Positions 6,701 through 63,041 of a stretch of DNA of 64,000 nt are shown here, one piece after another. Below the pieces are notes generated by a model. It searched no databases. It saw nothing but the letters and a program-made list of their open reading frames with translations, and had not been told where the DNA came from. Within the stretch, counting starts at the first letter, position 1. The number at the start of each line of letters is the position of its first letter. The translations under genes and the position numbers were made by a program. Origin of the DNA: Clostridia bacterium (GTDB taxonomy: Bacteria > Bacillota > Clostridia > Saccharofermentanales > DTU023); NCBI GenBank assembly GCA_040767365.1, contig JAXGOR010000004.1, positions 134,283-198,282 of the forward strand. The letters run 5' to 3'.

Positions 6701-8600
6701 GGGCTGCCTGGAGAGCAGCCAGGACGGCCGGGTCACTGTAGGAGTAATCCATCCCCTTGTACCTGCCCATCAGGCCATCCTGATCCCGGTCGACGGCGAC
6801 GACGACGGCATTCAGTGTCTGCTTCAGCTTATCTCCTTTTTTGTCGATGAAATACTGACCCCTGTCGATGTCATTGGCGTAGAAGCTTTTCACCGGCCCG
6901 TAGGAATCCGCTGTATCTTCGTACTCATCCCCCCCGATCATGCCCAGTCTGAAATAGTAATCGCTGGAGGTCGTCGCCGCGCTTTGTCTCAGGCCGATCA
7001 CAAAAACGACCTGTTCCCGGCCCCCCTCATTGTCATCAAAATTGCCCGCGGCCACGGATTGGATGTAGGCGACGCCGATGACAGAGCTCCCGGCTCCACT
7101 GTCCTTTTTGGTGAAATAATCCGGGATAAGCTTTTCTGTGATTGTGCCGTCAACGGGAGAGACCTGGTAGAGGCCTCCCTGAATGAAGATGTAGTCTGCT
7201 GCTGCCTTGCCGTCGATGGCAACCGTCTCAAGAGCAGTCTGCTGCCAGACATCATCGCCGGAGGGGTAAAACCCGCTCTGATGCCATTTGCTTGTTTCTA
7301 TATTCTCCAAAGAGAAATCCGACAGAGTTGACGCGTGCGTGAAGAGGGCCACAGAAAACCTGTCGTTGTCAATCGTGTAGGCCCCGTCCGCATTCCCGGT
7401 ATTTTTCCCAGTCCGAATGGTATTTTTGACACCCCCGACCACCAGATCGTCGAAGCCGTCCCCGTTGACGTCCCCCGCGGCGATGCCGGGAGCGATCATG
7501 GAATGGTAGTTGGTCCTGCCATCCTCAACATTGACAGACTCCCTGATGTAGGCAGAGTCATAGGGCTTCTTGAGAATGGTTCCGCTTCCTTTGGCTCCGT
7601 TTATGGTCGCCAGAAAGGGGGCATAAAGTCGGCTGTCATATTTCTGTTTGTCGCTCTCCGGCCTATTCATATAGGAGAGAACAGCCAGATCGTCGATGCC
7701 GTCCCCGTTGAAATCGCCTGTCGCCAGGGCTGCGCACAGTTTATGTCTCGTCTTGTTGTCATTGGCTAGGGAGGCATCAAGTCGCCAGTAGACGCTGTGC
7801 AGGTAGTCCTGGATTCCCGTGTAGCTACTGTCCTTGTAGTCGAGGCCGAAGGAGGACGTCAGCCGGATCTCGCTCAGGCCGTAGCTGACGCCGTCTCCGG
7901 GGATATACACCACATAAGTCTCCTGCCCGTCCCCGTCATAATCGCCGGCCGTGATGGCGAAGAAGTTATTGGCCTTATACTGGCCCAGTCCATTCTCCCC
8001 TTGGGTCGTGGCGATCCATTCCGCTGTCCCCAGGACCTTGACCGCTGTCTTCCGGTTGTGCTCCCGTGCGTCCTGGACCCAGGTGACCACCTTTTTAGTC
8101 TGGTAATCATAGCCCACATAGGCCACATGGTCCCTGCGCCCTGAACCGGTCGCGTCAAAGGCGACCGCTTGCACGTAACCATAAGCCCGGGTGTCGGCAA
8201 AGGTCCCGTATCCGGCGAACGATCCCTTTTCACTCCAGAAATTGACGGCGACATCCAGCTTGCCGGATGCGACACTGTCGGTCACTTTACCCTTATCGAA
8301 GCCTTCGTAATAGGTTGTCCATGCCCTCCTGTTGTCCTTGTCCAGGTCATAGGTTTGGTAGAGCAGCAATTCATTCTGTTCAACAAGAAGGAAGGGCTGA
8401 TCGATGCCATAACCGTAGGGATTATTGGTGTTTTGGGGATCAAAGCCCGCAGGTTCATCATCCATTTGGATGAAATCATCAAACTGGCTGTTCTTTGAGG
8501 CCTCAACTTCTGTCGTCGGACTGAGAAACACAGGGAATATGCCGATCGCCATAAGCAGGACCAGGGTCAGACTGATGACTCTTGTTTTCTGTCTCTTCAT
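3759..8600 (-). CDS. giant secreted/cell-surface protein (1614 aa): signal peptide, FG-GAP/VCBS repeats, unknown beta-rich module, FN3, five tandem B-repeat-like modules, P/T/S-rich stalk, C-terminal TM anchor
   Basis: Track ORF 3759..9050 trimmed to the internal ATG at 8600, which has a GGAGGG RBS and an ATGA overlap with the upstream gene. The N-terminus MKRQKTRVISLTLVLLMAIGIFPVFLSPTTEVEA looks like a signal peptide. FG-GAP-like motifs include GDFNGDGIDDLAV, AAGDVNGDGFDDLVVGG and AGDYDGDGQETYVVY. An FN3-like segment reads PRNLAARL...VILTWEKPDE...YNIYQKK...YTYMVKAF. Repeated modules of about 85 aa carry YVLEKW / YAFRMW / SRLEKW. The C-terminus is LVWMRIALIILALLLTGLGILLTAVILKRKKGQG. Confidence 0.8.
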   Translation of the reverse strand: MKRQKTRVISLTLVLLMAIGIFPVFLSPTTEVEASKNSQFDDFIQMDDEPAGFDPQNTNNPYGYGIDQPFLLVEQNELLLYQTYDLDKDNRRAWTTYYEGFDKGKVTDSVASGKLDVAVNFWSEKGSFAGYGTFADTRAYGYVQAVAFDATGSGRRDHVAYVGYDYQTKKVVTWVQDAREHNRKTAVKVLGTAEWIATTQGENGLGQYKANNFFAITAGDYDGDGQETYVVYIPGDGVSYGLSEIRLTSSFGLDYKDSSYTGIQDYLHSVYWRLDASLANDNKTRHKLCAALATGDFNGDGIDDLAVLSYMNRPESDKQKYDSRLYAPFLATINGAKGSGTILKKPYDSAYIRESVNVEDGRTNYHSMIAPGIAAGDVNGDGFDDLVVGGVKNTIRTGKNTGNADGAYTIDNDRFSVALFTHASTLSDFSLENIETSKWHQSGFYPSGDDVWQQTALETVAIDGKAAADYIFIQGGLYQVSPVDGTITEKLIPDYFTKKDSGAGSSVIGVAYIQSVAAGNFDDNEGGREQVVFVIGLRQSAATTSSDYYFRLGMIGGDEYEDTADSYGPVKSFYANDIDRGQYFIDKKGDKLKQTLNAVVVAVDRDQDGLMGRYKGMDYSYSDPAVLAALQAAPWFGELGSWGDYQGRTSYGFSQTYGFSRVKSETRSFGLSYALDFQFAVGLKVSFQEGYTGEWSRSFQESLEESYSSTFTAGAFDTVVLYRTPIVMYCYDLMVDGKWTENAVGLAFPQQPSYVQWSLDDYNTFVDYYNAYAADLNRANPDKLQIQLLNRLEDDYLGNEGNPWGYRSSWTGTDAVSLSKTNYSLGHAGGQTTSAYSYLGSETTGFENSNGYRLSLSVQGGSSVGGNEAWAGVAMQFASSEGYGEYTTVAKGTETSGTVFDINKYRLFNDEDIPLATSESYKFNWTFGKWSFKPGGASHEKTPVLGYALTGLRAPVPKPRNLAARLNPDDAAGSVILTWEKPDEKNRLKADGYNIYQKKGKEAFERVNAVPLSSDSLTYTVTGLENNSDYTYMVKAFSHESPESIPSNTASVRTAGSNYRIIFDLNENDVTVDARHTGNLPIQSGDQIPIDSIVDLKLTPKKDRTITRVELEVKGKRRDITNVAHEYNFIVQGDTRVIVTSKMVTVFDAFEIEYTGRYEGPDAAEIGRVHATAGDYPFSSGATVYGPAEFTAAPSKGYVLEKWIVTTDSEVSDYMANGENVWLFMPYAAAHKVEARFVREGDPSVNRKLTLTEMEGGGILVNGVRTKDQTLTLPVGTLVTLKPDPDAYYAFRMWTDDLVSYGSSAAPVSLALTDDMIVGARFYAPVKYAVTFFAVQAGDLAAAFNGLSIQSGAQLLPGSSLVLEAKAHPGSRLEKWRITKGAGITEIPVEGLVTQTTYKIDNLQNKYDVQAFFKEIEEYRLTVHLAGDGSVRILRDGRELADGDPVYFYDLLTIAAVPGAGSVLDSLLVNGTALKSGASLRVGGDVSIDAAFMVKNEEAPKPSEPSASGTATTSATKPAGIVIESTGPTAPKATTSSHNPTSAPDERPGASAPGTERSPATTETGFATVAGREEDSTKRLVWMRIALIILALLLTGLGILLTAVILKRKKGQG

Positions 8601-8950
8601 TTCCGCCCTCCAAGGTCTTTTTCTTTTTCCTGAATATCGCGCTTTTCTGTCGTGTCCCTCTTGTGTCTGCATCGTAAACACAAGATGGTGATCACTACGG
8701 CTGCCGTGAAGGAGACCACCCCCACCAGGACATAAGCGCCCGCATCCTCGAACATGAGGGTCGCTCCTAGCATGTCCTGGACGGATGTGCCCCCGCGGTC
8801 CCCGGTCACTAGGACAAAGGTTTGAAGGAGAACCAATGAAAGGAGCAGGCAAAATCCCGAAAGTGCCCAAAGAGATCTCTTTTCTCTTCTTCGGCGCAAT
8901 TCCCCGGCCCGCTCTTTGACCCCTCTCATTCTTTCTGCCGTGTCTTTCAT
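8597..8950 (-). CDS. 117-aa two-TM membrane protein, paralog of the protein encoded at 10365..10718
   Basis: Track ORF MKDTAERMRGVKERAGELRRRREKRS...; it has two hydrophobic segments. The stop overlaps the giant gene's start (ATGA at 8597-8600). It has the same length and shared motifs as the sigma-adjacent 117-aa protein. Confidence 0.55.
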   Translation of the reverse strand: MKDTAERMRGVKERAGELRRRREKRSLWALSGFCLLLSLVLLQTFVLVTGDRGGTSVQDMLGATLMFEDAGAYVLVGVVSFTAAVVITILCLRCRHKRDTTEKRDIQEKEKDLGGRK

Positions 8951-9080
8951 CCCTCACCACCACCTGTCCCAGGTCCAGCCTGAAATCTTTGAAAAGGCCT
9001 TCTACTTGTATAGGTACAAATAAAGGGGAAACTACGCACCCTGAAGACAAAAACTAAAAAAAAACGAAACAGAAAGAATC

Positions 9081-9759
9081 TTATCGCGGCTGGTCTTCTT
9101 CGCCGCCATCACTTTCTGAAGCCGCAAGCCTGGGCAATGACGGGACCAGTCTTTTGATCACACCAGCCAGAAGGAGACTGACCAGGGGCAGAGCATAGCC
9201 CAGGGTGGCAGTAGCCCCGCCGTGGGCGATCAGGAGGTTGTAGGTCGCATGATAGGTAATGGAGGCTCCCAGGAGGCCGGCCGTACCGGCAATCTTCAGC
9301 CAGTCCCTCTGCCAGACATAGACTAGGCCGTAGCAGATCATGGCCCCGCAGACGATGTGCATGGCCCCCGTGCCAAACCCCCGGATGAGGAGGTGGGTGA
9401 GGTTCTCCGCCCCGCTTTGGGTCAGGTAGACAATATTTTCGAAGGTGGCGAAACTGACCGCGATGGTCAGGACTGAACTTGAGATTTTCTTAGATTCCGG
9501 CTCAAAGATTAAAAGATAAAAGAGAAGAGGCAGGAGTTTCATGACTTCCTCCACCACGGGAGCGATCTGGGTAGAGGCGTTCATTAAGTCCGCATCATAA
9601 AGGCGGGCGAAGTAGGTATTGATATAGGCCGAAAGAAGGCAGGCGCCCATGCCGGCGAAGACAAAGAAGAACCAACGGTAGGTTTTCTTGCCCATAAAGA
9701 CCATGGCAATGAGAAGGGGGGCCGAGACGCAGACAAAGATGTTTTCAACATAGGTCACG
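9081..9759 (-). CDS. PrsW-family intramembrane metalloprotease (candidate site-1 protease for an anti-sigma factor)
   Basis: Track ORF 9081..9878 trimmed to GTG at 9759 (GTGA overlap with the upstream stop). The PrsW signature motifs are present: VVEEVMK (EExxK), SFATFENIVY (FxxxENxxY), RGFGTGAMHIVCG and ITYHATYN (HxxxN). The protein is polytopic. Confidence 0.65.
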
Positions 9760-10405
9760 CGGCCACCGCCTTTTTCAGGGCCGGGACCGAGGCCAGCAAG
9801 GAAAACGACAAGAGGAAGTCTATCCAGAAGTAGGGATTCGCCAAGGTCTCGCTGGTCCAGAAGCAGGAGGAGGTCCACAAAGCAAATTCCAGGACGATGA
9901 TCAGGAGTACCGCTGCATGGAAATACGCCCTGTTTCGGGCTCTTCCCTGGCCCTTCATAGCGTAGATCAAGCCCCTGAGGGCCAAGAAGGCAATGCCCAT
10001 ATTGAGGCCGACGGTCACAAGGTTGCCCAGAACTTCACCCCGGGTCATATAGAGGATGAACTGCGGGATGCAAAAAGCCGGCACCAGGAACAGGGCGGGA
10101 TGCCGGAACTTTTTTTCCTCCTTGGAGGCCAGGACCAATTCCAGGGTTAGAAGGAAGAGAGATCCGGCCACCCAGGCCAGTTCCGATACGTAAAAGACCT
10201 GGGGCACGCTGTCAAACAGGAGGATGTAGAGGGTCCAATGGAAGCTGCCCAACATGAAGGAGCCCAGGTAACAGGCCAGGAGGTAGACCGTCTGCTGCCG
10301 GGTCTTGTAGTAGAAGACTGCGGCGGCCAAAAAGGCCAAGAGGGTTACCACGGATTGAATCAGGTTATCGAGGAGTTCGACCATGGTCTCTGTCCTCTTC
10401 TCCAT
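9755..10405 (-). CDS. polytopic membrane protein of unknown function (216 aa)
   Basis: The track ORF is strongly hydrophobic and multi-pass. It is co-directional with its neighbours and overlaps them. The start is uncertain (alternative MVELLDNL at 10384). I recognise no family. Confidence 0.5.
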   Translation of the reverse strand: MEKRTETMVELLDNLIQSVVTLLAFLAAAVFYYKTRQQTVYLLACYLGSFMLGSFHWTLYILLFDSVPQVFYVSELAWVAGSLFLLTLELVLASKEEKKFRHPALFLVPAFCIPQFILYMTRGEVLGNLVTVGLNMGIAFLALRGLIYAMKGQGRARNRAYFHAAVLLIIVLEFALWTSSCFWTSETLANPYFWIDFLLSFSLLASVPALKKAVAA

Positions 10406-10718
10406 AACTCCTTATTTTGATGCGGTAAAAGAGAATGGTGACGGCAACACCGAGCGCGAAGGCCAATAGGCCGATCAAAATACAGCCCAGGTAGGGGCTG
10501 CCGTCGAAGATGCTGGCGGCCGCCCCCGGCGGGGTATAGTCGGTATCCAAAGAAGCGGCAAGCAGGGAGGGGATGTAGAAGGACAGGCCCAGGATCACCA
10601 GGAAGCTTGCGGCCAGGGCAGACGCAAGGATAATGCGGGAACGCCGAATGCTTCTTCGGTCCTCGATTTCTATAACCCTTCGGTTAACAGCAGCCAGTCT
10701 TTCTTCAGTAGTTCGCAT
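10365..10718 (-). CDS. 117-aa two-TM membrane protein in anti-sigma position (putative anti-sigma factor)
   Basis: Track ORF 10365..10826 trimmed to ATG at 10718 (MRTTEERLAAVNRRVIEIEDRRSIRRSR...). A GAAGGAG RBS lies inside the sigma gene's 3' end, giving a 14-nt overlap. It has a short charged N-terminus and two TM segments, and no zinc anti-sigma HxxxCxxC motif. Confidence 0.5.
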   Translation of the reverse strand: MRTTEERLAAVNRRVIEIEDRRSIRRSRIILASALAASFLVILGLSFYIPSLLAASLDTDYTPPGAAASIFDGSPYLGCILIGLLAFALGVAVTILFYRIKIRSYGEEDRDHGRTPR

Positions 10719-11259
10719 GGCTGACTCCTTCTTCTTCCAGACGTTTGCGCAAGGATTTCCTCCCCCGATAGACCAGGTCTGAAAGCTGTTTTTCACTTTT
10801 TTCCATGACTTCAGCGGCCTCGGCATGACTCAGATTTTCAAAATACACCAGATAAAGGGCCTGACGGTACTCCGGCTTCAGACGTTCCATGCAGAGATTA
10901 ACCAAGGCGTTCTGTTCATTCAATAAGGCCGGACCGTCCGCATAAGAATCTCCTTGGGGCTCAACTGCCATTTCATCAAGGCTCAGGCACTGGCGCAGTT
11001 TATGGCGGGCTAAAAAACGTAAGGCCCCATGCCAGGCGGATTTATAGATGTAGGCCTTGAATCCTCCGGGACGGATACGGGGTTTTTTAACCGCAAGATA
11101 GGCGAAGACATCGATCATCAAGTCTTCTGCGTCGTGGATGTCTTGGATATGGCGGTGAATGTAGAAGGTCAGCCGTGTACCGTAACGCTCGATCAACTCG
11201 CTTAAGCCGTCTTCATTTCCTTCCAGATATGCGCGATAGAGGGTTTCGTCGTCCGGCAC
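10705..11259 (-). CDS. RNA polymerase sigma-70 family factor, ECF subfamily
   Basis: Track ORF of 184 aa. Region 2-like: DAEDLMIDVFAYLAVKKP...AYIYKSAWHGALRFL. Region 4-like: PEYRQALYLVYFENLSHAEAAEVMEKSEKQLSDLVYRGRKSLRKRLE. Confidence 0.85.
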   Translation of the reverse strand: MPDDETLYRAYLEGNEDGLSELIERYGTRLTFYIHRHIQDIHDAEDLMIDVFAYLAVKKPRIRPGGFKAYIYKSAWHGALRFLARHKLRQCLSLDEMAVEPQGDSYADGPALLNEQNALVNLCMERLKPEYRQALYLVYFENLSHAEAAEVMEKSEKQLSDLVYRGRKSLRKRLEEEGVSHANY

Positions 11260-11297
11260 TGGTTTTCTCCTTGTAGGTAATTACGGAATCTACAGTT

Positions 11298-22738: not shown

Positions 22739-23578
22739 CTAATAGGCGCTTGCCAGACCCATGATACCACTCAGCCCGGGCAGGAAACGGGGGCCGGCTA
22801 TCGCCAGGGCCAGGAGGACCAGGACCAGGCCGAAAAATGCCAGGTCCCTGATGGACAGACGAGCCGTGTAGAGCCGGGTCCGCCCCGCCTCCCCCTGGTA
22901 GCAGCGGGCATCCATGGCGACCGCCAGGTCATCGGCCCGGCGGAAGCTGGAGATGAAAAGCGGCACCAGGATGCTGACCAGGCCGCGCATACGCCTGAAG
23001 GGCCCGCCCGTGTCGTAATCGGCGCCCCGTGATGACTGGGCCTTCATAATCTTGACCGCCTCATCCAGGAGGGTGGGGACGAAGCGGAGGGCGATGGACA
23101 TCATCATGGCAAACTCCTGGACCGGGAAACGGAGCAGGCGGAGGGGGGACAAGAGGCTTTCCAGGGCGTCGGCGATGGCCAGGGGTGGGGTGGTCAGGGT
23201 CAGGAGGAGGGAGGTATTGATAACCATGAGGGTCAAACGGAGCGCGGTCATGAGGCCGGCGTAGAGCCCCTCCTCCGTCAGGGTAAGGGAGCCGATCTGG
23301 ACGATCGCCTTCCCCGGGATGGTCAGGAGATTGAGAAGGACGGCAAACAGGATGATGACGACCAGGGGCCTGACACTGCGCAGGATGAGGGCAAACCGGA
23401 GCCCGGACCCTACCATGAGGATGACGGTCCAAAGCAGGAAGACGGCCAGGATCCTCGGGTCACGGACGGTCAGGGTCGCCACCATCATGAGGATGGCCGC
23501 CAGGAACTTGATCCGGGCATCCAGCCGGTGGAGGAGGGAGTCGCCCGGGATGGACCGGCCCAAGAGGCTCTTACGCAT
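22739..23578 (-). CDS. ecfT: energy-coupling factor transporter transmembrane component EcfT
   Basis: Track ORF of 279 aa: hydrophobic, with ...ALRFVPTLLDEAVKIMKAQSSRGAD... and the conserved rplQ-ecfA-ecfA-ecfT-truA context. Confidence 0.88.
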   Translation of the reverse strand: MRKSLLGRSIPGDSLLHRLDARIKFLAAILMMVATLTVRDPRILAVFLLWTVILMVGSGLRFALILRSVRPLVVIILFAVLLNLLTIPGKAIVQIGSLTLTEEGLYAGLMTALRLTLMVINTSLLLTLTTPPLAIADALESLLSPLRLLRFPVQEFAMMMSIALRFVPTLLDEAVKIMKAQSSRGADYDTGGPFRRMRGLVSILVPLFISSFRRADDLAVAMDARCYQGEAGRTRLYTARLSIRDLAFFGLVLVLLALAIAGPRFLPGLSGIMGLASAY

Positions 23579-25364
23579 GGGCCTTCACCCCCGCCGCCGC
23601 CAGCAGGGTTCCCGCGGCGTCGGCAACACTGAAGCGGGCCGTGTCAAGTCCGGGGAAGAGGTCGGACAGGGCCTTGAGGAAACGCCGGGGCGCCGGCATA
23701 TCCAGGTGGACCCCGGTCAGGAAGGCGTCCTCTTCCGTTATTTCTGCCGGGCTCCCCAGGCCCGCGATCCGGCCCTCCTTCAGGATGACCAGGCGGTCGG
23801 CGATCCGGGACAGGGTCTCCATATCGTGGGAGACCAGGATGAGGGTGGCTCCTTCGGCGGACAGGGTCAGAAGATCGGCGAAGAGCTCCTCACAGGCGGC
23901 AGGGTCCAGTCCCGCTGCCGGCTCGTCCAGGATGACGATGTCAGGCTCGGCGGCCAGGACGCCGGCAATAGCCGCCCGCCGGCGCTGGCCGCCGGACAGT
24001 TCAAAGGGTGACCGGTCCAGGAGGTCGGTGATACCCAGGCGGTCGGCGGCGCGGAGGACCGCCCGTTCAACCTCCTGGGGGGACTTCTTCTGCTGTTTGG
24101 GAGCGAAGGCAATATCGAGCGCGACCGTCTCCTCAAAGAGCTGGTCCTCCGGATATTGGAACAAGAGGCCGACCTGGCGGCGGACAGCGCGGATGACCTT
24201 CCTCCGGGACAGGTCCCGGCCCAGTACAATCACGGTGCCCGGTTCGGAGGGGATAAGGCCGTTGAGGTGCTGGATCAGGGTGGACTTGCCCGAGCCCGTA
24301 TGGCCCGCGATCCCCAGGACCTCCCCGTCCGCCACGGCCAGGGAGATAGCCTCAAGGGCAGGAAGGGGGCTCCCCCCCTCGGAGTCATAGGCGTAGCTGA
24401 GTCCTTTGACCTCAATGACCGGGGGTTGCCCCTCCCTGGCCCCGGCCCTCCTGTCAGCCGGTGCCGGCGCCGGTCTTGACGGTCCCTGGCTTCCAGCGAG
24501 GGCCCCCCTCACATAATCAAGGGCTCCATCGAAGCTGATGATCCGGTCGGGATCATAGGGGACCCCCGTCGCCCGGCTGATGATCTGGGCGATTTCGAGA
24601 TGGGAAGGCACGGCCATCCCCTCGCCCTTGAGCCGGTCCACCTGGTCGAAGACCCGGGCGGGCGTCCCATCAAAGGCGATGCCTCCCTCACTTATGACGT
24701 AGACATAATCGGCAAGGAGGGCCTCCTCCATATGGTGGGTGATCTGGATGACGGTCAGGCCATAGTCCCGCCTAAGTTCCTGGATCAGTTCCCTGATCTC
24801 GGCCCGGGCAGCCGGGTCCAGCATGGAGGTGGCCTCGTCCAGGATGACGCAGTCGGGTCGCATGGCCAGAACGGAGGCCAGGGCCAGCTTCTGCTTCTGT
24901 CCCCCTGACAGTTCGTGCGGCGCCCGGTCTCTCAAATCGGCCAGGCCCGTCATGGCCAGGGCCTGGTCCAGGCGGCGGAAGATCTCCTCCCGGGGCAGGC
25001 CGAGATTGGAGGGCCCGAAGGCGACATCGTCCTTGACCGTGGTGCCGATGATCTGGTTGTCCGGGTTTTGGAAGACCATGCCGCACTGCCTCCTGATCTC
25101 ATAGAGGACGTCTTCATCGGCTGTCAGCTTGCCATCGACCCAGACCTCCCCCTCATCGGGCAGGAGGAGGCCATTCATAAGGCGGGCCATGGTTGATTTC
25201 CCGGAACCGTTGCGGCCGATCAGGGCGATATGAGCGCCTTTTTCGACAGAAAAAGAAAGCCGGGAGACAGCCCTCACCGGCCCTTGTCCCTGCATCGCCC
25301 CATAGCTGAAGGAGACATCCCGAAACTCGATCATCTTACCCGACATCCTGCCCCATTTTACCAA
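23571..25364 (-). CDS. ecfA: fused ECF transporter ATPase EcfA1-EcfA2 (two ABC domains in one ORF)
   Basis: Track ORF of 597 aa with two full ABC cassettes: GRNGSGKST ... LSGGQKQKLALASVL ... ILDEATS, then GHTGSGKSTL ... LSGGQRRRAAIAGVL ... ILDEPAAGLD. They are joined by a P/A-rich linker, GSQGPSRPAPAPADRRAGAREGQPP. Confidence 0.85.
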   Translation of the reverse strand: MVKWGRMSGKMIEFRDVSFSYGAMQGQGPVRAVSRLSFSVEKGAHIALIGRNGSGKSTMARLMNGLLLPDEGEVWVDGKLTADEDVLYEIRRQCGMVFQNPDNQIIGTTVKDDVAFGPSNLGLPREEIFRRLDQALAMTGLADLRDRAPHELSGGQKQKLALASVLAMRPDCVILDEATSMLDPAARAEIRELIQELRRDYGLTVIQITHHMEEALLADYVYVISEGGIAFDGTPARVFDQVDRLKGEGMAVPSHLEIAQIISRATGVPYDPDRIISFDGALDYVRGALAGSQGPSRPAPAPADRRAGAREGQPPVIEVKGLSYAYDSEGGSPLPALEAISLAVADGEVLGIAGHTGSGKSTLIQHLNGLIPSEPGTVIVLGRDLSRRKVIRAVRRQVGLLFQYPEDQLFEETVALDIAFAPKQQKKSPQEVERAVLRAADRLGITDLLDRSPFELSGGQRRRAAIAGVLAAEPDIVILDEPAAGLDPAACEELFADLLTLSAEGATLILVSHDMETLSRIADRLVILKEGRIAGLGSPAEITEEDAFLTGVHLDMPAPRRFLKALSDLFPGLDTARFSVADAAGTLLAAAGVKAHA

Positions 25365-25438
25365 ACAAAAAGGACTCCCCCCGGCCTGGCACGCGGGAAG
25401 CCCCTCTTTTGATCTCTATGACCGAAGAACCAGCCGCC

Positions 25439-26999: not shown

Positions 27000-27581
27000 T
27001 TATTTCGAGTAGAGCTCGACGATGAGTGTTTCCTCGACATCGAGATCAATCTCGTCCCGTTCCGGCACCCTCAGGACCGTCCCCTTGAGATGGTCGGCGT
27101 CAAAGGACAGCCAGTTGGGAACGATCGTATTCGGCAGCTCGTCAAAGAGCTTGACATGGCGGGAATTCTCGCGCACGGCAACTTCGTCGCCAGGGGAGAC
27201 ATTCATGGAAGGGATGCTGGCCCGGCGGCCATTGAGATTGAAGTGGCCATGGTTGACCAACTGACGGGCCTGGGCCCTGGTCGCCGCGAAACCCATCCGG
27301 TAGACCACGTTGTCAAGCCGGAGCTCCAGGAGTTTCAGCAGGTTCTCACCGCTCTTGCCGGGCATCTTGCTGGCCCGCTCATAGGTGTTGCGGAACTGTT
27401 TCTCCAGGACACCATAGACGAACTTGACCGATTGCTTGGCCCTGAGCTGGCGCCCGTACTCCCCTTCTTTACGTCGGGATTGTCTCGGGTTGCGTTTTGA
27501 TTTTTTATTTATACCCAGCATCTGAGGCGGCACTTCCAATGACCGGCTGCGTTTCAGGATGGGCGATCTGTCTTTAGCCAT
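27000..27581 (-). CDS. rpsD: 30S ribosomal protein S4
   Basis: Track ORF of 193 aa: ...YGRQLRAKQSVKFVYGVLEKQFRNTY...LLELRLDNVVYRMGFAATRAQARQLVNHGH. Confidence 0.93.
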   Translation of the reverse strand: MAKDRSPILKRSRSLEVPPQMLGINKKSKRNPRQSRRKEGEYGRQLRAKQSVKFVYGVLEKQFRNTYERASKMPGKSGENLLKLLELRLDNVVYRMGFAATRAQARQLVNHGHFNLNGRRASIPSMNVSPGDEVAVRENSRHVKLFDELPNTIVPNWLSFDADHLKGTVLRVPERDEIDLDVEETLIVELYSK

Positions 27582-30792: not shown

Positions 30793-32084
30793 TCAATCCA
30801 GGAAGCCCTTGTAGTGACGCATGAGCATTTGTGCCTCAAGCTGCGTCACGATATCCATGGCCACACCGACCAGGATAAGTACCGCTGTTCCACCGAACCA
30901 GATCCCGTGGGCACCGGTCAGGAGGCCAAGGAAGGCCGGCAGAAGAACCAGGACCACCAGGAAGACTGACTCAAACCAATTGAGGCGGCGGGCCGTCTTG
31001 CCGATAAAATCGGCAGTGGGCCGTCCCGGTCTGATCCCCAGGATGTAGCCGCCGTTCTTTTGCAGATTACCCGCGATCTCCACCGGATTGTAACTGATCA
31101 TGGAGTAGAAGAAGGTAAAGGCGATGATCAGAATGGCGTAGATCAGGTAATAGAGCGGGTTGCTGTTGAAATTCATAAGCCAGACCGCCAGCTTGCCCGT
31201 GCGCCTGTGAAGGAGGCGATGGTCGAGGGCACCATAAGCATGGACATGGCGAAGATGACCGGCAGAACACCGGACTGGTTCACCTTGATCGGCAGATAGG
31301 TGCTCTGGCCCCCGTACATCTTGCGGCCTACTACCCGCTTGGTGTACTGGACCGGGATCCGCCGTTCCGCGCTCTGGATGAAGACAACCAGGGCGATGAT
31401 GCCGACAAAGACCGCCACCGTCACCACAACCAGGCCCAGGGCCAGGAGGATATTCCCGGTCACGGTCAGGGTGGTGAAATAGACGAAGAGTCGCCTGGCG
31501 TAATCGGGCGACCGGCTGGCGATGCCGATGAAGATGATCAGGGAGATCCCGTTTCCGACCCCCTTGGCGTCAATCTGCTCACCCAGCCACATGATGAAGG
31601 CGGCGCCGGCGGCAAAGCTCAGGATAACCACTACCAGGCTCAGCCACTCGGGGATGCCCGGGGTAGTCGCGCCCCGTGTCAACAGGGCGTAGGAGGTGGC
31701 CATGACCAGGGAGAGGCCCAAGGTCATGAGCCGGGTGATCTTCTGGAGCTTCTTCTGGCCTTCCTCGCCTTCCTTCTGCAGGCGCTCCAGCGCCGGGATG
31801 GCAAAGGTCAGCAGCTGCATGATGATCGAGGCGTTGATATAGGGCGATATACCCAGCGCCATGACCGACACCGACTTGAAGGCGCCCCCCGAGATGATGT
31901 CGAGGAACTGGCCCAGCTGGCCAAAACGATCGATGAGCGACGCGAAGGCGACGCTGTCAATCATGGGGGTCGGGATGGCTGTCCCCAGCCTGAAGGCCAG
32001 GATGGCGAAAAGCGTGAAGAGGATCTTCTTCTTTAAGTCCGGAATTCTCCAGGCATTGGCCAGGGTCTGAAACATACTGCCCAT
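30793..32084 (-). pseudogene. secY: preprotein translocase SecY, read as two ORFs because of a 1-nt frameshift (303-aa N-part + 127-aa C-part)
   Basis: Track ORFs 31173..32084 (…LPIKVNQSGVLPVIFAMSMLMVPSTIASFTGA then RASWRSGL stop) and 30793..31176 (MNFNSNPLYYLIYAILIIAFTFFY…GGYILGIRPGRPT…HYKGFLD). The C-part frame upstream reads TGKLAVWLMNFNS, so a single missing base near 31198-31203 restores one 430-aa SecY. The span is 1292 nt (3n+2). The stop and start overlap as ATGA (31173-31176). Confidence 0.85.
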
Positions 32085-41861: not shown

Positions 41862-41889
41862 AGATAAATGACAATGTAACCTGGACAGT
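41862..41889. repeat. IS30-family element left terminal inverted repeat
   Basis: Matches the reverse complement of 43562-43589 at 25/28. Confidence 0.8.
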
Positions 41890-42033
41890 GAGTCAAAAAA
41901 AACGTCCAGCTTAATCTGGCAAATAGAATGTCCTACTTAATCTGGCAAGAGTGACCTCTTTCGTCAACCAAAACTTTATACTGTCCCAAGAGAAGAACCA
42001 AGCTCAAGGCGGGCCTTCCCTAAGGAGGTTGCC

Positions 42034-43329
42034 ATGAGCCACTACCAACACCTGACCCTGGAGGACAGGGTCTTAATCAAAATGAAACTGGAAGCTGCCG
42101 ACTCTTTTCGTAAGATCGCAAAAGACTTGGGTAAATCCCCCACCACCATCTCCCAGGAGATAAAAAAGCATCGGAGCCGTATCGAGAAGAATGCCTTCAA
42201 TACCCGCTACAACCCTTGTAAGCACCGATTCCACTGTCCTGCCCAACTTTTATGTGGCAGGCTCTACTGCAAGAAGAAAACCTGTGCCTCCTGCAAGGAA
42301 GGCTGCTCTCCTCTTTGCCCTGACTTCGAAGAAGAATACTGCCCACGCCTGCAAAAGGCACCCTATGTCTGCCATGGCTGTAAACAAAAGCACCGTTGTG
42401 GCCTGACCCGCTACGAGTACATGCCCACCGTTGCTCACCATCAATACCTGGAGCTCCTGTCCGAATCCCGTCAAGGGAGGTCTTATTCGCCTGAAGAGGT
42501 CGACTCCATCCGCAAGATCGTGAAGGCAGATCTCAAGCGGGGGCTATCGCCTTACATCATCTGGGCCAACCACAAGAACGAACTGCCTTGCTCTCACCGG
42601 ACCATCTACCGGCTCATCCAGGACCGAGCCCTGGCTGAAGTCTCAGGCTTTGACCTGCCCTACAAGATCCGTTACCGGCCCAGAAGAAAGAGGCGGGAGC
42701 ACAAGATTGACACGCGCTGCCGTCAGGGGAGGACCTGCCAGGACTACCTGGCCTTCATGGGGGAGGACCCCTGGCCCGTCGTCGAGATGGACACGGTCAT
42801 CGGGACGGTCGGGGGCAAGGTCATCTTGTCCCTCTATTTCCAAGAGTCCTCCTTGCTCCTCTTATACTTGAGAGAACGTAATACGGCCCAGTCCGTCATC
42901 GATTGCTTTAATCGCCTCTACGATGTCCTGGGCCGGGACAGCTTTTGTCGACTCTTCCCGGTCCTCCTCACCGACAACGGATCGGAGTTCTCCAATCCTG
43001 TTGCCATTGAGTTTGACCAAGAAGGCCAAAGGCGGACCCGGATCTACTATTGTGACCCGGGGATGCCAAACCAGAAGCCTGGAGTGGAAGGGGCCCACAA
43101 GCACTTAAGGCGCATTTTACCCAAGGGGACGTCTTTCAATGATCTGACCCAGGAAGACCTGAACCAGGTCATGGGCCATGTCAACGGTTTCCCCAGAAAA
43201 AAGCTGAATGACCGGTCACCAACCCAGTCATTCAGCGCTACTTTCGGGAGGGACATCCTGGAACGCTTAGGCGTTCCTTGTATCGATCCTTCCCAAGTAG
43301 TTTTACGGCCCAGCGCCCTACAAAAGTAG
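42034..43329 (+). CDS. IS30-family DDE transposase with a Cys-rich insertion
   Basis: Track ORF of 431 aa. N-terminal HTH: HLTLEDRVLIKMKLEAADSFRKIAKDLGKSPTTISQEIKKH. DDE core: ...VVEMDTVIG...LLTDNGSEFS...YYCDPGMPNQKPGVEGAHKHLRR. AAGGAGG RBS. Confidence 0.9.
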   Translation: MSHYQHLTLEDRVLIKMKLEAADSFRKIAKDLGKSPTTISQEIKKHRSRIEKNAFNTRYNPCKHRFHCPAQLLCGRLYCKKKTCASCKEGCSPLCPDFEEEYCPRLQKAPYVCHGCKQKHRCGLTRYEYMPTVAHHQYLELLSESRQGRSYSPEEVDSIRKIVKADLKRGLSPYIIWANHKNELPCSHRTIYRLIQDRALAEVSGFDLPYKIRYRPRRKRREHKIDTRCRQGRTCQDYLAFMGEDPWPVVEMDTVIGTVGGKVILSLYFQESSLLLLYLRERNTAQSVIDCFNRLYDVLGRDSFCRLFPVLLTDNGSEFSNPVAIEFDQEGQRRTRIYYCDPGMPNQKPGVEGAHKHLRRILPKGTSFNDLTQEDLNQVMGHVNGFPRKKLNDRSPTQSFSATFGRDILERLGVPCIDPSQVVLRPSALQK

Positions 43330-43561
43330 ACCGCTGATTTTTCGGGAAAAAGCCCGCCTCGAACGCCGTTCTTCTCTAACGTTCCAGGCCATCCAGCTTA
43401 AAGTGTCGTAAACGACAAATAGCTCGATGGTTCTGTTAAGCGCGCTCTTCTTTCCTGCCGTGCTCCCCATTCTACCATTTATCTTCGCTTTACGGGGTTT
43501 TTCTTGTGACTGCCAAACCCCTCGCTACAGTTTGTTTCAAGTTTTCTTGGATCCCTACTCT

Positions 43562-43589
43562 ACTGTCCAGGTTAGCTTGTCATTTATCG
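43562..43589. repeat. IS30-family element right terminal inverted repeat
   Basis: See the left repeat (25/28 match). Confidence 0.8.
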
Positions 43590-47426: not shown

Positions 47427-48326
47427 TCAGACCCTGGCGTACTTTCGCACGGAGATGGCGCTCACGATAACGCAAAGCAGGATCCCGATGGCCAGGTTAA
47501 GCCCGAAGAGGATGGCGGTCACCGAGGAGGCCGGCAGGAGGGCGAACTTGTTGGCCGACTGGGCCAGGGGATCGGGGTTTAGACGGACGACCAGGCGGCT
47601 GTAGATCAGGGCGGCTATGACACTGGAAATAAGCGCCCCCGTTATCCCGATCACGGTTCCCTCCACGATGAAGGGCGTCCGGATGAAGGCGTTGGTCGAC
47701 CCGACATATTTCATGATGTTGATCTCCCTGCTCCGGGACAGGACCGCGATGCGGACTGTATTGGAGATCACCACGGCCGAGGTCACGGCCAGTACGATAA
47801 AAACGATGATGCCGATGCGGCGGGTCCAGCCCTTGACACTGTCGAGCAGGGACATGAGCTGCGACTCCATCAGGACCTCCTGGACACCCCCATAGGCGGT
47901 TACCTCCTCCTCGAAGCTCTCACCGTAGGCGGGGTCGGTCAGGCGGACGCTCATGGTATAGGGGATGGATTGGCTGTAGTCGAAGTCCTTCCAGAGCTCG
48001 TCCTTGCCCATATCCTCCTTGAACTGTTCGAAATTCTCCTGGGGAGTGAAAATCCGCAGGTCCTGCACCATCTCGTGCTCTTCCAAGAAGCCCGCCAGGT
48101 CCGTGATCTCATCGGCGGAACTGCCTATCTTCATAACGATCTCGATGGGGGGCTGCTGGGAGGCAATTTTGGACAGATGATTGGCGTTCATGGAGACGGC
48201 CACGAAGGCGCTCATCAAAAAGAGCATGAGGGCCAGGGTGGTGACGGCCGCCACCGTGAGAAGGGGATGGCGGATCAGGCCCTGCAGGCCTGCCTTCAAG
48301 GAGTAGCGCCACTCATTCCGCTTCAT
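47427..48326 (-). CDS. ftsX: cell division permease-like protein FtsX
   Basis: Track ORF trimmed to MKRNEWRYSLKAGLQGLIRHPLLTVAAV... (ATG 48326). It has a large extracellular loop and three C-terminal TM segments, and it directly follows ftsE. Confidence 0.86.
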   Translation of the reverse strand: MKRNEWRYSLKAGLQGLIRHPLLTVAAVTTLALMLFLMSAFVAVSMNANHLSKIASQQPPIEIVMKIGSSADEITDLAGFLEEHEMVQDLRIFTPQENFEQFKEDMGKDELWKDFDYSQSIPYTMSVRLTDPAYGESFEEEVTAYGGVQEVLMESQLMSLLDSVKGWTRRIGIIVFIVLAVTSAVVISNTVRIAVLSRSREINIMKYVGSTNAFIRTPFIVEGTVIGITGALISSVIAALIYSRLVVRLNPDPLAQSANKFALLPASSVTAILFGLNLAIGILLCVIVSAISVRKYARV

Positions 48327-49401
48327 CGGGCGACTCCTTCCCCCCACCAGGGGTCTCCAGGTCCTTCAGCCGGATGACGGGGATCCGCCCCGTCCGGGAG
48401 AGGCCGGCTCCTTCCTCCGCCTTCGGCCTGCCTGTTGGAAGGGGACGCCTTTGGGCCGGGGGCCTGTTTCTCCGCCTGGAGGCGCTCTTGCTCATGGTGT
48501 CGTAGAAGTCGTCACGCCGGACGGCCTCCCGCATACGCCGTACCCGCTCCCCTGCCCTGGCATCAATGGACTCCGGCTCCTGGTTGTTGTTTTCGCGTAG
48601 CTGGCGGAGGGCGTCACCCCCCTCTTCCACGGCCAGCCTGATGGTCTCCGCTTCCTCCCTTTGCCGTCTTTCACATTCCAGCGTGGCCGCCAAGCCACGT
48701 TTTCGCTCGCTTTCCAGGATATAGAGGCCCCGGGCGTCGTCACGGACCAGGAGGCCTTCACAGATCTCAATCACCCGCTTGTTCATACGGTCGACGATAT
48801 CCCGGTCGTGGGTACAGGTGATGACCGTGGTCCCATTCTCCCTGCTGATCCGTTCCAGCAGGGCCATGATGGCTTCGCCGTTGACGGGGTCCAGGTCGCC
48901 TGTCGGCTCATCCGCTATGATCAGGCGCGGCCTGTTGACCAGGGCCCGGGCGATGCAGACACGCTGCTGTTCGCCCCCTGACAGTTCAGTCGGATAGTCA
49001 TTGATCTTGCGGCGGAGACCGACGACGGAAAGGACCAGGGGGACCCGCTGGCGGACCTTGCGGGGGGCTTCCCCGACAATCTCCATGGCCAGGGCCACAT
49101 TCTCGCCCACCGTCAGGGTGTCGATCAGCCGGAAATCCTGGAAGATCATACCGATCTTCCGCCGGAGGTAGGGGATCCTTTGCTCATCCAGCTTCCCGAT
49201 GTCGAAACCGTCCACCACGATCCGACCCGAGGTCGGGTTCTCCTCCCGGGTAAGGAGCCTGAATACGGTTGATTTTCCCGCCCCGCTTTCCCCGATCAAA
49301 AAGGCGAATTCCCCTTCCTCAATCGAGAAAGAGACATCGTGCAGTGCCAGCGTACCGTTGGGATAGGTCTTGCTGACTCTATCAAATTCAATATAGGCCA
49401 T
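48313..49401 (-). CDS. ftsE: cell division ATP-binding protein FtsE with a charged C-terminal extension of about 135 aa
   Basis: Track ORF of 362 aa: MAYIEFDRVSKTYPNGTLALHDVSFSIEEGEFAFLIGESGAGKST...LSGGEQQRVCIARAL...IADEPTGDLD. The ABC domain ends near LLVRDDARGLY. An R/E-rich tail then runs to the stop. Confidence 0.88.
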   Translation of the reverse strand: MAYIEFDRVSKTYPNGTLALHDVSFSIEEGEFAFLIGESGAGKSTVFRLLTREENPTSGRIVVDGFDIGKLDEQRIPYLRRKIGMIFQDFRLIDTLTVGENVALAMEIVGEAPRKVRQRVPLVLSVVGLRRKINDYPTELSGGEQQRVCIARALVNRPRLIIADEPTGDLDPVNGEAIMALLERISRENGTTVITCTHDRDIVDRMNKRVIEICEGLLVRDDARGLYILESERKRGLAATLECERRQREEAETIRLAVEEGGDALRQLRENNNQEPESIDARAGERVRRMREAVRRDDFYDTMSKSASRRRNRPPAQRRPLPTGRPKAEEGAGLSRTGRIPVIRLKDLETPGGGKESPDEAE

Positions 49402-50601: not shown

Positions 50602-52280
50602 CTAAAAGAGTCCCGAGATCCGTCCGTTTTCGTCAACATCGATCTTTTCCGCGGACGGCAATTTGGGCAGGCCGGGCATGGTCATGACCTCGCCGGTCAG
50701 GGCCACTATAAAGCCCGCCCCTGCGGACGCCTTCAGGTTCCTGACCGTGATCCTGAAATGCTTGGGGACACCGATCATCTTGGGGTCGTCGGCAAAGGAA
50801 TACTGGGTCTTGGCGATACAGACAGGCAGGTGGCCGAAGCCGTTCGCCTCAAGCTGTTTCAGCTGCCTCACGGCCGGACCTACAAAATCCACCCCGTCCG
50901 CCCGGTAGACCCGGGTCGCGATGGCCTCGATCTTTTCCTTGAGGCTGGTCTCCTCCCCGTAGACAAAGCCAAGGGGCCCCTTGTCCGGCAGATCGCACAG
51001 GCGCACGACCTCCCGGGCAAGCTCCAGGCCGCCCTCGCCCCCTTTTGCCCAGACTTCCGACAGGGCCACGCGGACACCCTGGCGTTCACACTCTTCCCTG
51101 ACCAGGTCAAGTTCCGCTTCGGTGTCATCGGGGAAGCGGTTGATGGCCACCACGACCGGCCGCCGGTAGACGTCCAGGATATTCCTGACATGCTGGATCA
51201 GGTTCTCCATACCGGCCTTCAGGGCCGACAGGTTTTCCCGCTTGAGTTCATCCTTGCCTACGCCGCCATCATCTTCAGGGCCCGCACAGTGGCAACCAGG
51301 ACGACAGCGTCGGGATCCAGGCCCGCGGTCCGGCACTTGATGTCGATAAATTTCTCAGCGCCCAGATCGGCCCCAAAACCGGCCTCCGTCACCAGATAGT
51401 CGGCCTGGGTCAGTCCCATGGTTGTCGCCAGGACACTGTTGCAGCCGTGGGCGATATTGGCGAAGGGCCCGCCGTGTACATAGGCCGGCGTCCCTTCCAG
51501 GGTCTGGACCAGGTTGGGCTTGAGGCTGTCCTTGAGGAGGGCGGCCATGGCCCCCTGGGCCTTCAGGTCCCTGCATAGGACAGGTTCCCCGCTGAAGGCG
51601 TAGCCGATCACGATCCGGCCCAAGCGCGCCTTCAGGTCCGTCAGCGAGCTGGCCAGGCAGAAGATCGCCATCACCTCGGACGCGACCGTTATCTCAAAGC
51701 CATCCTCCCTGGGCGTGCCATTCACCCGGCCTCCCAGGCCATCCACGATGAAGCGGAGCTGGCGGTCATTCATGTCGACCGCCCGCTTCCAGGTGATCTG
51801 CCTCGGATCGATCCCCAGCCTATTGCCCTGCTGGATATGGTTGTCAATCATGGCGGCCAGCAGATTGTTGGCGGCCCCGACCGCATGCATGTCGCCGGTA
51901 AAGTGGAGGTTCAGGTCCTCCATGGGCACCACCTGGGCGTAACCGCCTCCGGCGGCCCCGCCCTTTATCCCGAAGACGGGCCCCATGGAGGGTTCGCGGA
52001 GGGCCAGGGTGCAAGACTTGCCGATCCGGTTCATGGCGTCGGCCAGGCCGATTGTGGTCGTCGTCTTCCCCTCGCCGGCCGGTGTCGGCGTGATCGCCGT
52101 CACCAGGATCAGCTTGCCTCTTTTGTCCGTCCCCGCTTCGAGCGCCTCAAGGGATACCTTGGCCTTGTATCGGCCATAGTGATCCAGATATTCATTGGGT
52201 ATGCCGGCCTTTTCAGCGATTTCATCAATTGGCCGTAAAGTGGCTTCCTGCGCGATTTCTATGTCTGTCTTGAATCCCAT
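50602..52280 (-). pseudogene. fhs: formate-tetrahydrofolate ligase, read as two ORFs because of a 1-nt frameshift
   Basis: Track ORFs 51258..52280 ([18 protein letters not shown]...[16 protein letters not shown]...[14 protein letters not shown] stop) and 50602..51336 (frame reads ...[23 protein letters not shown]...VAINRFPDDTEAE...). Inserting one base between the two ATG codons (about 51269-51270) restores ...[15 protein letters not shown].... The span is 1679 nt (3n+2). Confidence 0.87.
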
Positions 52281-52406
52281 GATCCCCCCTGGCAGTATGC
52301 AAATTTTGACCTATAGTCTATTTCTTATATATCCACGCGGGCCCGCAGGCCCGCTCCTTTATCCTTTATGCCCGCTCCCGGCCCTTGAGTCCAACCGGCT
52401 GCCCGG

Positions 52407-55987: not shown

Positions 55988-56126
55988 GGTGGTTAGTTCA
56001 GTCGGCTTCGTCGCAGTTTCAACAACCTTATTTACCTTCGAAAGCGAAATGAACAGAGCCCATCTCCTTCAATGATGGTTGTCGTTGGTACTGTTTCCCA
56101 TTTTCGCATACAAAGAGGCATCGTTG

Positions 56127-58943
56127 ATGGATAATCTGTCAGTCACTGCAAAGCATCTGTGGGCAAAAAAATCAGTCGATCCATTAAATGGTCATCTGTC
56201 TTGGTTGCCTTTAAGTGTGCATATGACAGATACCGCTGGGGTTGCCGAAAAATTATGGGACCGCTGGCTTCCGGATCAGACAAAAGAAGCAATTCGAAGT
56301 GGCCTTAGTCCCCGTCACCAAGCTAGAGAATTATTTATTTTTCTAGCGGCTGCTCATGACATCGGCAAGGCAACGCCTGTCTTTCAGACCAAAACAACTT
56401 GGGCAGGCCGTGGTGGCCGGGCATCACCCGATTTGGATGAACGAATCTATGAGCTATTGGTAGCTACGGGATTGCCGGTGAAACCCGAAAATTTCTTCGG
56501 AAGTCCTGAAAAATCTCCACATGCCTTGGCATCACAACTACTTCTGGAGCGCTTTGGCTGTGATCGAAGCATTGCTGTCATTCTCGGTGCACATCATGGA
56601 AAACCACCCAGCTATTCCCAGCTTCAAAAGAGCGGTATCAATACCTTCCCCAGAAATTTCCATCTAGGTAAAGAGGGCAAAAATATTTGGGTGTCAGTTC
56701 AAGATGAACTCATCTCCAAATCCTCTGGATTGGGGGTTTTACAAGTATAAATGAACTTCCACAAACGAATATGGTCGCTCAAGTTTTATTGAGCGGCTTA
56801 GTGATTATGGCAGACTGGATAGCCAGCAATGAATCCCTCTTTCCCTATCAAAGCCTTGATTGGGATTCTATCCAATACATCGACGATCAACGCTCTGAAC
56901 TAGCTTGGGACAAACTGAACCTCCCCACACCTTGGAAACCAAGTTCAGCAAACAAAGATAATGATCCCTATGCGCTTCGTTTTGGCTATAAGCCAAACCG
57001 TGTACAGGCTGCTGTCTTGACGACGGCACACACAATTCAAAATCCTGGAATAATGATTTTGGAAGCACCATGAGGAGGCGGAAAAACAGAAGCAGCTCTG
57101 GCCGCTGCCGAGGTATTTGCCGGAAAATCAAAATGTTCCGGTTTATTTTTCGCCCTCCCCACCCAGGCAACCACGGATGGCATGTTCCCTCGCATAATCA
57201 ATTGGATTGACCGACTCAACGATGAACGCCTTTCAGTCAGACTTGCTCACTCGAAAGCTCAGTTCAATGAGCGGTATCAGGGTCTCCGATTGTTTGAAGG
57301 CGGCACGAATATTGGCGATGAAGAAGGGGGTGGCGTGGTCCACAGCTGGTTTGAAGGACCAAAAAAATCTCTGTTAGCCGATTTCGTAGTCGGAACAATT
57401 GACCAGTTGCTTCTTGCAGCTTTACGACAAAAGCATGTCATGTTAAGGCATCTGGGCCTGGCGGGGAAAATCATAATCATCGATGAGTGTCATGCCTATG
57501 ACGCTTTTATGAATCAGTATTTGGAAAGGATCCTGGCGTTGGCTGGGAGCTTACGAAGTACCTGTCATCATGCTTTCAGCCACCTTACCGTCGGATTCAC
57601 GTCGAATCCTTATTGAGGCCTATACGGGAATCAAAGTGATAGAAGAAGCCGAACCAGATAATTTTGGCGAAATCAAAGAAATCGCTTTTAACCCACCTGA
57701 TTGGTTGAACAATAGGGCTTATCCTCTCATCACCTACTCCGATAATGAAGTAATCAAATGCATAGAACCCGAAGCGAGCGCGCCGTCCAACAAGGTATCG
57801 ATCAGGTATCTTGCGGAGAGTTCGCTCACAAACGAGATGCGATCCCTCTTGGCCGAAGGTGGCTGCGCAGGAGTGATAGTCAATACTGTCAGGCGATCAC
57901 AGGAAATTGCTGAACAATTGAGGACAGAATTCGGCAAAGAGACTGTCAAACTCATTCATTCCCGATTTCTCGCCCCTGCCCGTATCCAAAAAGAGGGTGA
58001 ACTGCTTCGTGAATTAGGGCCGCCAAGTGAAAAGACAAAACGGCCAACACAGCGCATCTATGTTGGCACGCAGGTATTTGAGCAATCACTTGATATTGAC
58101 TTTGACGTTTTATTTACAGATATCTGTCCTATGGACCTGCTCCTTCAACGTATTGGTCGAATGCACCGGCATGAGCGGTCAAGGCCGACAAAACTTCAAG
58201 ACGCACGATGCTATGTCCTTGAAACTGAAGATGACACCTTCGAAGAAGGCTCCGCTTTTATATATGGGACCTACCTGCTTATGCGCACTAAAGCCTTGTT
58301 ACCGGATACTATCAATCTTCCCCAAGATATCAGCGTCCTCGTAGAAAACACCTATGACGACGAATTCGCCATTGCGCCTATGCCTGAAGATTACGAGATA
58401 GCGAAAAAAGAATGGAAATCCAGTCTGGAGAATAAAAGACGACGTGCACAAGCCTTCCGGATTAGTTCACCCCATGCAGATTTTGCAGAAAATATCACCA
58501 GTTGGCTCGACACAGATCTGAAATCTACGGACCCCTACGCCGAGGCCGCCGTTCGAGACACCAATGAATCTTTTGACGTGCTTCTCATCCAGCGAATTGG
58601 ACCGGGAAAATTCAAGATGATTGTAGATCCCCGCCTTGATCGACAAGAAAGCCCTCTTATCGAGGCAGATATGCCAGCTGACAGAATTGCAATGCGACTG
58701 GCCAGACAGTATATACGCCTACCTGACATATTGTGCAAACCCTGGTCAATTGACGGAACCATTGATGAACTGGAAGAAATGAATATGAAATTGATTCCCG
58801 ATTGGCAAGAATCGAATTGGTTGCGAGGAGAGTTGTTTTTGATCCTCGATGAAAATTTTCAGGTACAACTTAACGGATACCGAATAGCTTACAGCTTTGA
58901 TAATGGATTGAATCACAAAAAAGAGGAGGCAAATGATGGATAA
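56127..58943 (+). pseudogene. cas3: type I-E Cas3 (HD nuclease + SF2 helicase), disrupted by two frameshifts and one in-frame TGA
   Basis: Four track ORFs. 56079..56750 is the HD domain (LAAAHDIGKATPVFQ). 56771..57073 reads ...VLLSGLVIMADWIASNE...IMILEAP then TGA. 57182..57616 reads ...GGGKTEAALAAAE upstream in the same frame, and IIIDECHAYD. 57570..58943 reads VPVIMLSATLP.... The first frameshift lies in the G5 run at 56732-56736, where G6 would restore SGLGGFTSINELP. The TGA is at 57071-57073. The second frameshift is an extra T at 57539-57540, whose removal would restore ERILAWLGAYEVPVIMLSATLP. Confidence 0.87.
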
Positions 58944-63038: not shown

Positions 63039-63041
63039 GAT

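Follow-up and report, generated by a model that had tools for sequence, protein, structure and literature searches.

A secY gene split by a frameshift in a clostridial contig: probable consensus error and its alternatives

The secY gene is essential in bacteria, and we know of no earlier natural case of this universal protein-conducting channel being built from two polypeptide chains. Some gram positive bacteria carry an accessory SecY2, a specialised paralogue that is not known to replace the housekeeping SecY. Complementary fragments of Sec61p were reportedly described by Wilkinson et al. in 1997, believed to be the source of the assembly work on split mutants. Neighbouring bacterial genes may share an ATGA overlap, a geometry that allows termination-reinitiation; where such coupling is genuine, the overlap is conserved and connects two distinct genes. 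A literature search for natural split secY genes returned engineered or split-reporter work only. The yeast sec61 delta-L7 mutant, in which loop 7 is deleted, is viable (PMC3897919). Long-read assemblies typically err in their consensus by frameshifting indels, chiefly at low coverage; where indels fragment genes, IDEEL-type length tests detect them and frameshift-aware correction takes them out (PMC9262707, PMC8103633, PMC12007338). Here, a secY gene that is read in two pieces is described and compared with these systems. It lies in a stretch of 64 kb of a Clostridia bacterium, referred to as the window throughout.

The split gene and its one-base repair

On the minus strand of the window, secY is found as two ORFs of 303 and 127 amino acids in the ORF list and in the three-frame translation. 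Part 1 (31173-32084) comprises the native residues 1-294, i.e., TM1-TM7, followed by nine out-of-frame residues and a TGA, as seen in the ORF list, Pfam, and tblastn. Part 2 (30793-31176) begins at the native Met304 and holds TM8-TM10 and the C-terminus, as seen in the ORF list and Pfam. The native reading of part 1 ends with ...MVPSTIASFTG, after which ARASWRSGL and the TGA follow; this out-of-frame tail carries the peptide ...FTGARASWRSGL, and the N-terminus of part 2 reads MNFNSNPLYYLIY... (MNFNSNPLYY...). The Pfam SecY profile (PF00344) is matched by part 1 over its positions 1-199 and by part 2 over positions 204-306 of 306. Likewise, tblastn of the repaired SecY against the window places residues 1-295 in frame -3 and the remainder, 296-430, in frame -2, with the junction at 31200. 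The division of the gene into two frameshifted pieces, as reported by a first-pass annotation of the same DNA, is thus borne out by the ORFs, the Pfam halves, and the tblastn frames.

The switch from frame -3 to frame -2 equals the loss of one base in the three-frame translation. The residues FTG are read in the upstream frame and TGKLAVWLMNF in the downstream frame of the window, and hence the lesion is confined to one codon. Two contigs were compared at this place. L001 (ENA ERZ25038380, NODE_5526), assembled independently from the short reads of another metagenome sample, belongs to the same species and has 98.8% nucleotide identity to the window, and CAZAKT010000018.1 (GCA_964486135.1; loci L085 and L087) belongs to a related species with 84-91% nucleotide identity. 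Pairwise alignment puts the single missing base at 31202/31203 (minus strand), where the window has GGC-GCACG and L001 has GGC AGC ACG (Gly-Ser-Thr); the same gap is seen against L085. The base absent from the coding strand is the A of the AGC codon of Ser295. The site reads TTTACAGGCAGCACGGGCAAGC in L001 and TTCACAGGC-GCACGGGCAAGC in the window, and the longer sequences across it are GGCAGCACG in L001 and, without the extra base, GGCGCACG in the window. A missing G in the CGGG run (CGG GGC) had been assumed at first and was dropped, as the same-species contig puts the loss two codons upstream; since the missing base is the A of AGC and not a G of CGGG, the idea of a homopolymer origin for the secY lesion was abandoned. 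The earlier statement that the break site is not a homopolymer holds on this evidence, the missing A lying in GGC[A]GCACG.

When the A is restored at 31202/31203, an ORF of 1293 nt encoding 430 amino acids is obtained. A housekeeping SecY is expected as one uninterrupted ORF of about 430 amino acids, which the window gives only after this insertion, the gene as read being divided into 303 and 127 amino acids. The hydropathy profile of the repaired protein fits a ten-TM layout, and its residues 4-429 align end to end with solved SecY structures, including 3DIN and 5EUL. In this profile TM7 spans approximately residues 268-293 and TM8 residues 306-335, so that the break (residues 295-304) lies in the TM7-TM8 loop, where the first-pass annotation had placed it; from known SecY topology, we take this loop to be extracytoplasmic. 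The native loop codons TGKLAVWL (31177-31201, minus strand) lie in the frame of part 2, are native in neither ORF, and form the aberrant tail in the frame of part 1 (three-frame translation). As a result, neither piece encodes STGKLAVWL, nine residues of the native loop, and ARASWRSGL closes part 1 instead. The gene order L30-L15-secY-adk-map-IF1-L36-S13... of the window is the same in the same-species and related contigs. The gene is the ordinary housekeeping copy, in its usual slot of the ribosomal-protein cluster between rplO (L15) and adk.

Part 1 stops and part 2 starts within one ATGA (31173-31176, minus strand; TCAT on the plus strand), an overlap that the first-pass annotation had recorded correctly. 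It is formed by the codons ATG AAT of Met304-Asn305, which are kept as MNF in the closest relatives. A TGA arises in the shifted frame of every Met-Asn pair (ATG AAY), and the one within Met304-Asn305 is the first stop past the deletion, nine codons downstream. The ATG of Met304 is the first ATG, GTG, or TTG in its frame (stop-to-stop frame 30793-31569, listed ORF from 31176), and any ORF finder will therefore restart at Met304. Since a conserved ATG AAT yields TGA whenever the frame slips, the overlap is not an independent coincidence. Judged from the codons that compose it, the ATGA is a by-product of the Met-Asn pair, with no sign of selection for coupling.

Relatives and same-species contigs

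The length of 430 amino acids is that of SecY in 105 of the 145 relatives collected. The best database matches are 88-90% identical and the cluster member P0145 is 97.4% identical to the repaired protein; all of these are single proteins, as are the relatives down to 62% identity. SecY is unsplit in all 120 homologues among the matches listed and the members of the four closest clusters. A few short entries exist (102-266 amino acids), which come from contigs of 0.7-2.2 kb, cover the C-terminal part only, and start at residues 165, 235, and 329. None of the 145 relatives is split at the site of the window, and no short entry begins at the Met of part 2. At the junction the relatives read ...TIASFTGSTGK(V/F/L)A.WLMNF..., and the Ala together with the aromatic position (Trp/Phe/Tyr) of the lost loop is present in nearly all of the junction variants tabulated among them.

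An exact-sequence look-up of L15 identified four short same-species metagenome contigs, with nucleotide identities of 98.2-99.1%. The sole one across the secY site is L001, whose coverage is approximately 1.7x according to its contig name. Over 4.7 kb, its length differences from the window are confined to the A in secY and a 10-N scaffold gap, and it is solely through this gap that the secY of L001 is called as 342 and 96 amino acids. The comparison with sister genomes proposed by the first-pass annotation accordingly finds the site intact in the same-species contig as well as in the nearest species. The short-read contigs found for the species all break in the 3' half of secY (L002 ends at 31703, L004 starts at 30886, and the 10-N gap of L001 lies near 31097), which may be due to low coverage. 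Exact look-ups of each secY fragment found no record, and those of L15 and Adk found matches on short contigs only. A scan of metagenome contigs for the junction pattern with 0-2 extra bases gave no match. In a scan of genome contigs with the repaired SecY, the matches listed are relatives of at most 56% identity, all aligned over the full length. The second secY copy that the first-pass annotation considered is absent from the 64-kb window, as judged by tblastn of the repaired SecY.

Between the repaired secY and L085, 100 codon differences are synonymous and 11 are non-synonymous; the counts are 70 and 7 in part 1, and 30 and 4 in part 2. Both halves are under purifying selection and show no decay. 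Hence, the lesion is either not real or very recent.

Other broken genes and the quality of the window

The gene order of CAZAKT010000018.1 is that of the window across 20.8-55.8 kb. Over approximately 33 kb and more than 40 genes, nearly all indels between the two are intergenic or multiples of three. Only two of them break a frame, one in secY (31203) and the other in fhs (51269/51270), and both are one-base gaps in the window. A few more whose length is no multiple of three are found at the ends of genes or close to annotated starts (Map, FtsE, adenine deaminase, the final codons of fhs, and M23 peptidase). The FtsE of the window (48313-49401, minus strand; 362 amino acids) has a charged-rich C-terminal tail of approximately 130 amino acids, and the version in the relative has 377 amino acids, with a 60-nt indel in this tail. 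The fhs gene for formate-tetrahydrofolate ligase (50602-52310, minus strand) has lost one base at 51269/51270, where the alignment with L087 gives ATG-ATGG in the window against ATGCACGG in the relative. Its pieces occupy the stop-to-stop frames 50602-51354 and 51258-52310, and the Pfam FTHFS profile is matched in two frames, over positions 1-337 and 337-556. After repair, the product has 559 amino acids, a length as in its relatives.

Further lesions are found on the plus strand in the type I-E cas genes. The cas3 gene (56079-58943) lies in three or four pieces. Its first lesion (56727-56745) is a frame change in or beside a GGGGGTTTT run (G5T4). The second (57071-57073) is an in-frame TGA, with CCATGAGGA where CCAATGGGA is expected; the Met at this place (EAPMG.GKT) is present in six of six aligned homologues, and either three substitutions or a deletion paired with an insertion would account for the change from ATG to TGA. 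The third (57533-57547) is one extra T, GCGTTGG against the expected GCGTGG, which shifts the reading between ...ERILA and WLGAYEVPV.... In cas6e (63042-63702), the frame changes at 63538-63550 beside an AAAAA run, as seen in the three-frame translation and in Pfam PF08798, whose positions 1-176 and 178-222 are matched in different frames. In total, six gene-breaking lesions affect four genes in 64 kb (secY, fhs, cas3 three times, and cas6e), and five of the six are indels or most simply read so. Two lie in or beside runs of 4-5 identical bases (G5T4 in cas3 and A5 in cas6e), and one more lesion of cas3 is the doubling of a lone T.

The other broken genes were also sought in the same species. 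Exact look-ups of SIMPL and Cas5 gave no match; that of Cse2 led to the same-species contig L086, which stops short of the cas3 and cas6e lesions. Protein searches with the repaired FTHFS and Cas3 gave no match from the same species; the best match of FTHFS was 93% identical, and the nearest intact Cas3 was 55% identical. The type I-E CRISPR-Cas block (cas3, cse1, cse2, cas7, cas5, cas6e, and the start of cas1; 56000-64000) has a GC content of approximately 0.47 against approximately 0.60 in the neighbouring core genes, a contrast that suggests its horizontal acquisition. The block is also present on L086, with 99.0% identity.

With L085 as the outgroup, a codon-by-codon comparison counts 67 synonymous and 13 non-synonymous substitutions specific to the window, and 24 and 1 specific to the same-species contigs. 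Random errors would be mostly non-synonymous and the substitutions of the window are mostly synonymous, and hence the latter represent real strain divergence. A generally noisy consensus was ruled out by this excess of 67:13, which leaves the indels alone as suspect. In approximately 11 kb of same-species sequence, the gap in secY is the only indel, and one indel per 11 kb agrees with six lesions per 64 kb. Good substitutions together with residual indels, some of them at homopolymers, make up the profile described for long-read consensus sequences. A separate cluster of differences is found in rpsD (S4; approximately 27090-27190, minus strand), where six non-synonymous differences between the window and L004 fall within approximately 90 nt, several of them as multi-base codon changes. 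At all six, L004 has the outgroup state, and the cluster may be a recombination tract.

The deletions in secY and fhs each remove the centre of a short palindrome, GC[A]GC (GCWGC) and ATG[C]AT; for secY, the deleted base is read from the same-species contig and the flanks from the window. Such palindromes could be methylation motifs that disturb base calling. As no other indel occurs in approximately 11 kb of the same-species comparison, any effect of this kind is not systematic.

A rate of approximately one gene-breaking lesion per 10 kb on this contig is a quality flag. The apparent pseudogenes secY, fhs, cas3, and cas6e should not be taken as biology, nor be counted against completeness or metabolic potential, until reads are checked. 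Another frameshift, in an anti-sigma gene, could be present at 9755-10829 (minus strand). There, downstream of the gene for an ECF-type sigma factor (10705-11280), two ORFs with no Pfam match are read in different frames and overlap by approximately 45 nt. Two energy-coupling ABC ATPase domains are joined in a single ORF of approximately 590 amino acids (23571-25415, minus strand), upstream of a CbiQ/EcfT-type gene; the same fusion is found in the related species (586 amino acids), and it is therefore natural and not a lesion. An uninterrupted frame of 1765 codons (3759-9053, minus strand) contains FG-GAP, fibronectin type III, and InlB B-repeat-like domains, and its product is probably a large surface protein. 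An IS-like element of approximately 1.7 kb (41863-43588) is bounded by terminal inverted repeats of 27 nt (41863-41889 and 43562-43588; 93% complementary) and has an ORF with an HTH_38 domain (41941-43329). Its neighbours are a metallo-beta-lactamase-fold gene and rpsJ, and the syntenic contig of the related species lacks it.

Readings of the split and their likeness to known systems

The split of secY is most likely an indel error in the assembly consensus, and the living cell most probably makes one SecY of 430 amino acids. A technical cause of the missing base is the most likely one on comparison of the assembled sequences, as distinct from reads. One A would have been dropped from the consensus inside the Ser295 codon, at 31202/31203; the frame would then slip, nine codons would be read out of frame, and translation would stop at the TGA within the ATG AAT of Met304-Asn305, from whose Met304 an ORF finder would call the second ORF. 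As is typical of such artefacts, a one-base repair restores the family length in both secY (430 amino acids) and fhs (559 amino acids), the lesion is absent from the independent same-species assembly L001, and further lesions are found in fhs, cas3, and cas6e. Among the explanations listed by the first-pass annotation, an assembly error is accordingly favoured by the repair to 430 amino acids, by the A in L001, and by the three other broken genes. The two-piece SecY that it also put forward gains no support, the split being absent from 145 relatives and the overlap being automatic.

Several observations weigh against a consensus error. The secY and fhs deletions lie outside homopolymers, the most typical site of long-read errors. 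Besides the gap in secY, no indel is found in approximately 11 kb of same-species sequence, and the substitutions look biological (67:13). The site is spanned by one same-species contig only, at approximately 1.7x coverage. Moreover, the lesions of cas3 and cas6e could be genuine decay of an acquired island, which would leave two lesions in approximately 42 kb of core genes.

Some of these points lend weight to a real and recent deletion in a strain or sub-population, by which the allele is broken and the cell relies on another secY, or the contig is a defective minority variant. The deletion is present in the sequence as given, the site is not a homopolymer, and the window is otherwise accurate where it is comparable, as there is no other indel in approximately 11 kb and synonymous changes dominate the substitutions. 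We nevertheless regard a broken allele as unlikely. The gene is essential and no second secY is found in the window, the same-species contig and all relatives are intact, and neither half has accumulated non-synonymous changes. In addition, the five further lesions in three other genes are explained more simply by one technical cause.

A real deletion might also be combined with a working two-piece SecY, the ribosome restarting at the AUG that overlaps the UGA and TM1-7 and TM8-10 assembling in the membrane. The ATGA geometry is known for termination-reinitiation, the break falls in a loop and not in a helix, and both halves are free of decay. Moreover, yeast Sec61p tolerates the loss of the equivalent loop 7 (PMC3897919), and split Sec61p mutants still assemble (PMC8675477). 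Against this, the split occurs in no relative, the same species included, and the overlap follows automatically from the Met-Asn codons. The piece STGKLAVWL is lost, with its near-universal Ala and aromatic position, and ARASWRSGL is added to part 1. No good ribosome-binding site precedes part 2: its pairing with the 3' end of 16S rRNA reaches -6.0 kcal/mol at best, and that of rplO -12.6 kcal/mol, a difference that is not decisive, as adk (-3.5 kcal/mol) and map (-6.3 kcal/mol) are also weak. The other broken genes of the window again point to a common technical cause. On balance, a deletion rescued in this manner is very improbable, and it is a shade less credible still that this strain naturally forms a working channel from two pieces through a UGA/AUG restart. 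If true, such a two-piece SecY would bear on the folding and assembly of SecY.

Programmed recoding, i.e., a -1 ribosomal frameshift or transcriptional slippage that restores the full-length SecY, has a negligible chance: a -1 shift would restore the frame and nothing more speaks for it, ACAGGCGCACGGGCA holds no slippery heptamer of the form X XXY YYZ and no A/T run (...ACA GGC GCA CGG GCA...), the tRNA reading GCA would be unable to re-pair one base back on CGC, and the arrangement is missing from the relatives and from the same species.

A cell with a damaged copy could survive by means of an accessory SecY2; the gene of the window is instead the canonical copy between rplO and adk, and the window holds no second one. 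The likeness to split or loop-deleted Sec61 consists of a break in the loop between TM7 and TM8, which yeast can lose, and of a channel that can in principle form from fragments. Those proteins are engineered yeast constructs, whereas the secY of the window is known from sequence alone, its loop residues are lost and out-of-frame ones stand in their place, and no natural lineage carries the split. With ATGA/TGATG-coupled bacterial genes, secY shares the same four-base geometry. Unlike in coupled pairs, its ATGA lies inside one gene, derives from conserved Met-Asn codons, and contains a stop only after a frame slip. A naturally split gene is expected to conserve its split and to divide cleanly, without lost or out-of-frame residues, and the secY of the window does neither.

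The closest likeness in form is to the gene-fragmenting consensus indels of long-read or low-coverage MAGs. The secY and fhs deletions differ from these in lying outside homopolymers, as does the window in the high quality of its substitutions. In common with such assemblies, the window has several lesions, some of them beside homopolymers, and its secY, which is free of the lesion in independent assemblies, consists of two adjacent ORFs in different frames that a one-base repair joins to the exact length of the family.
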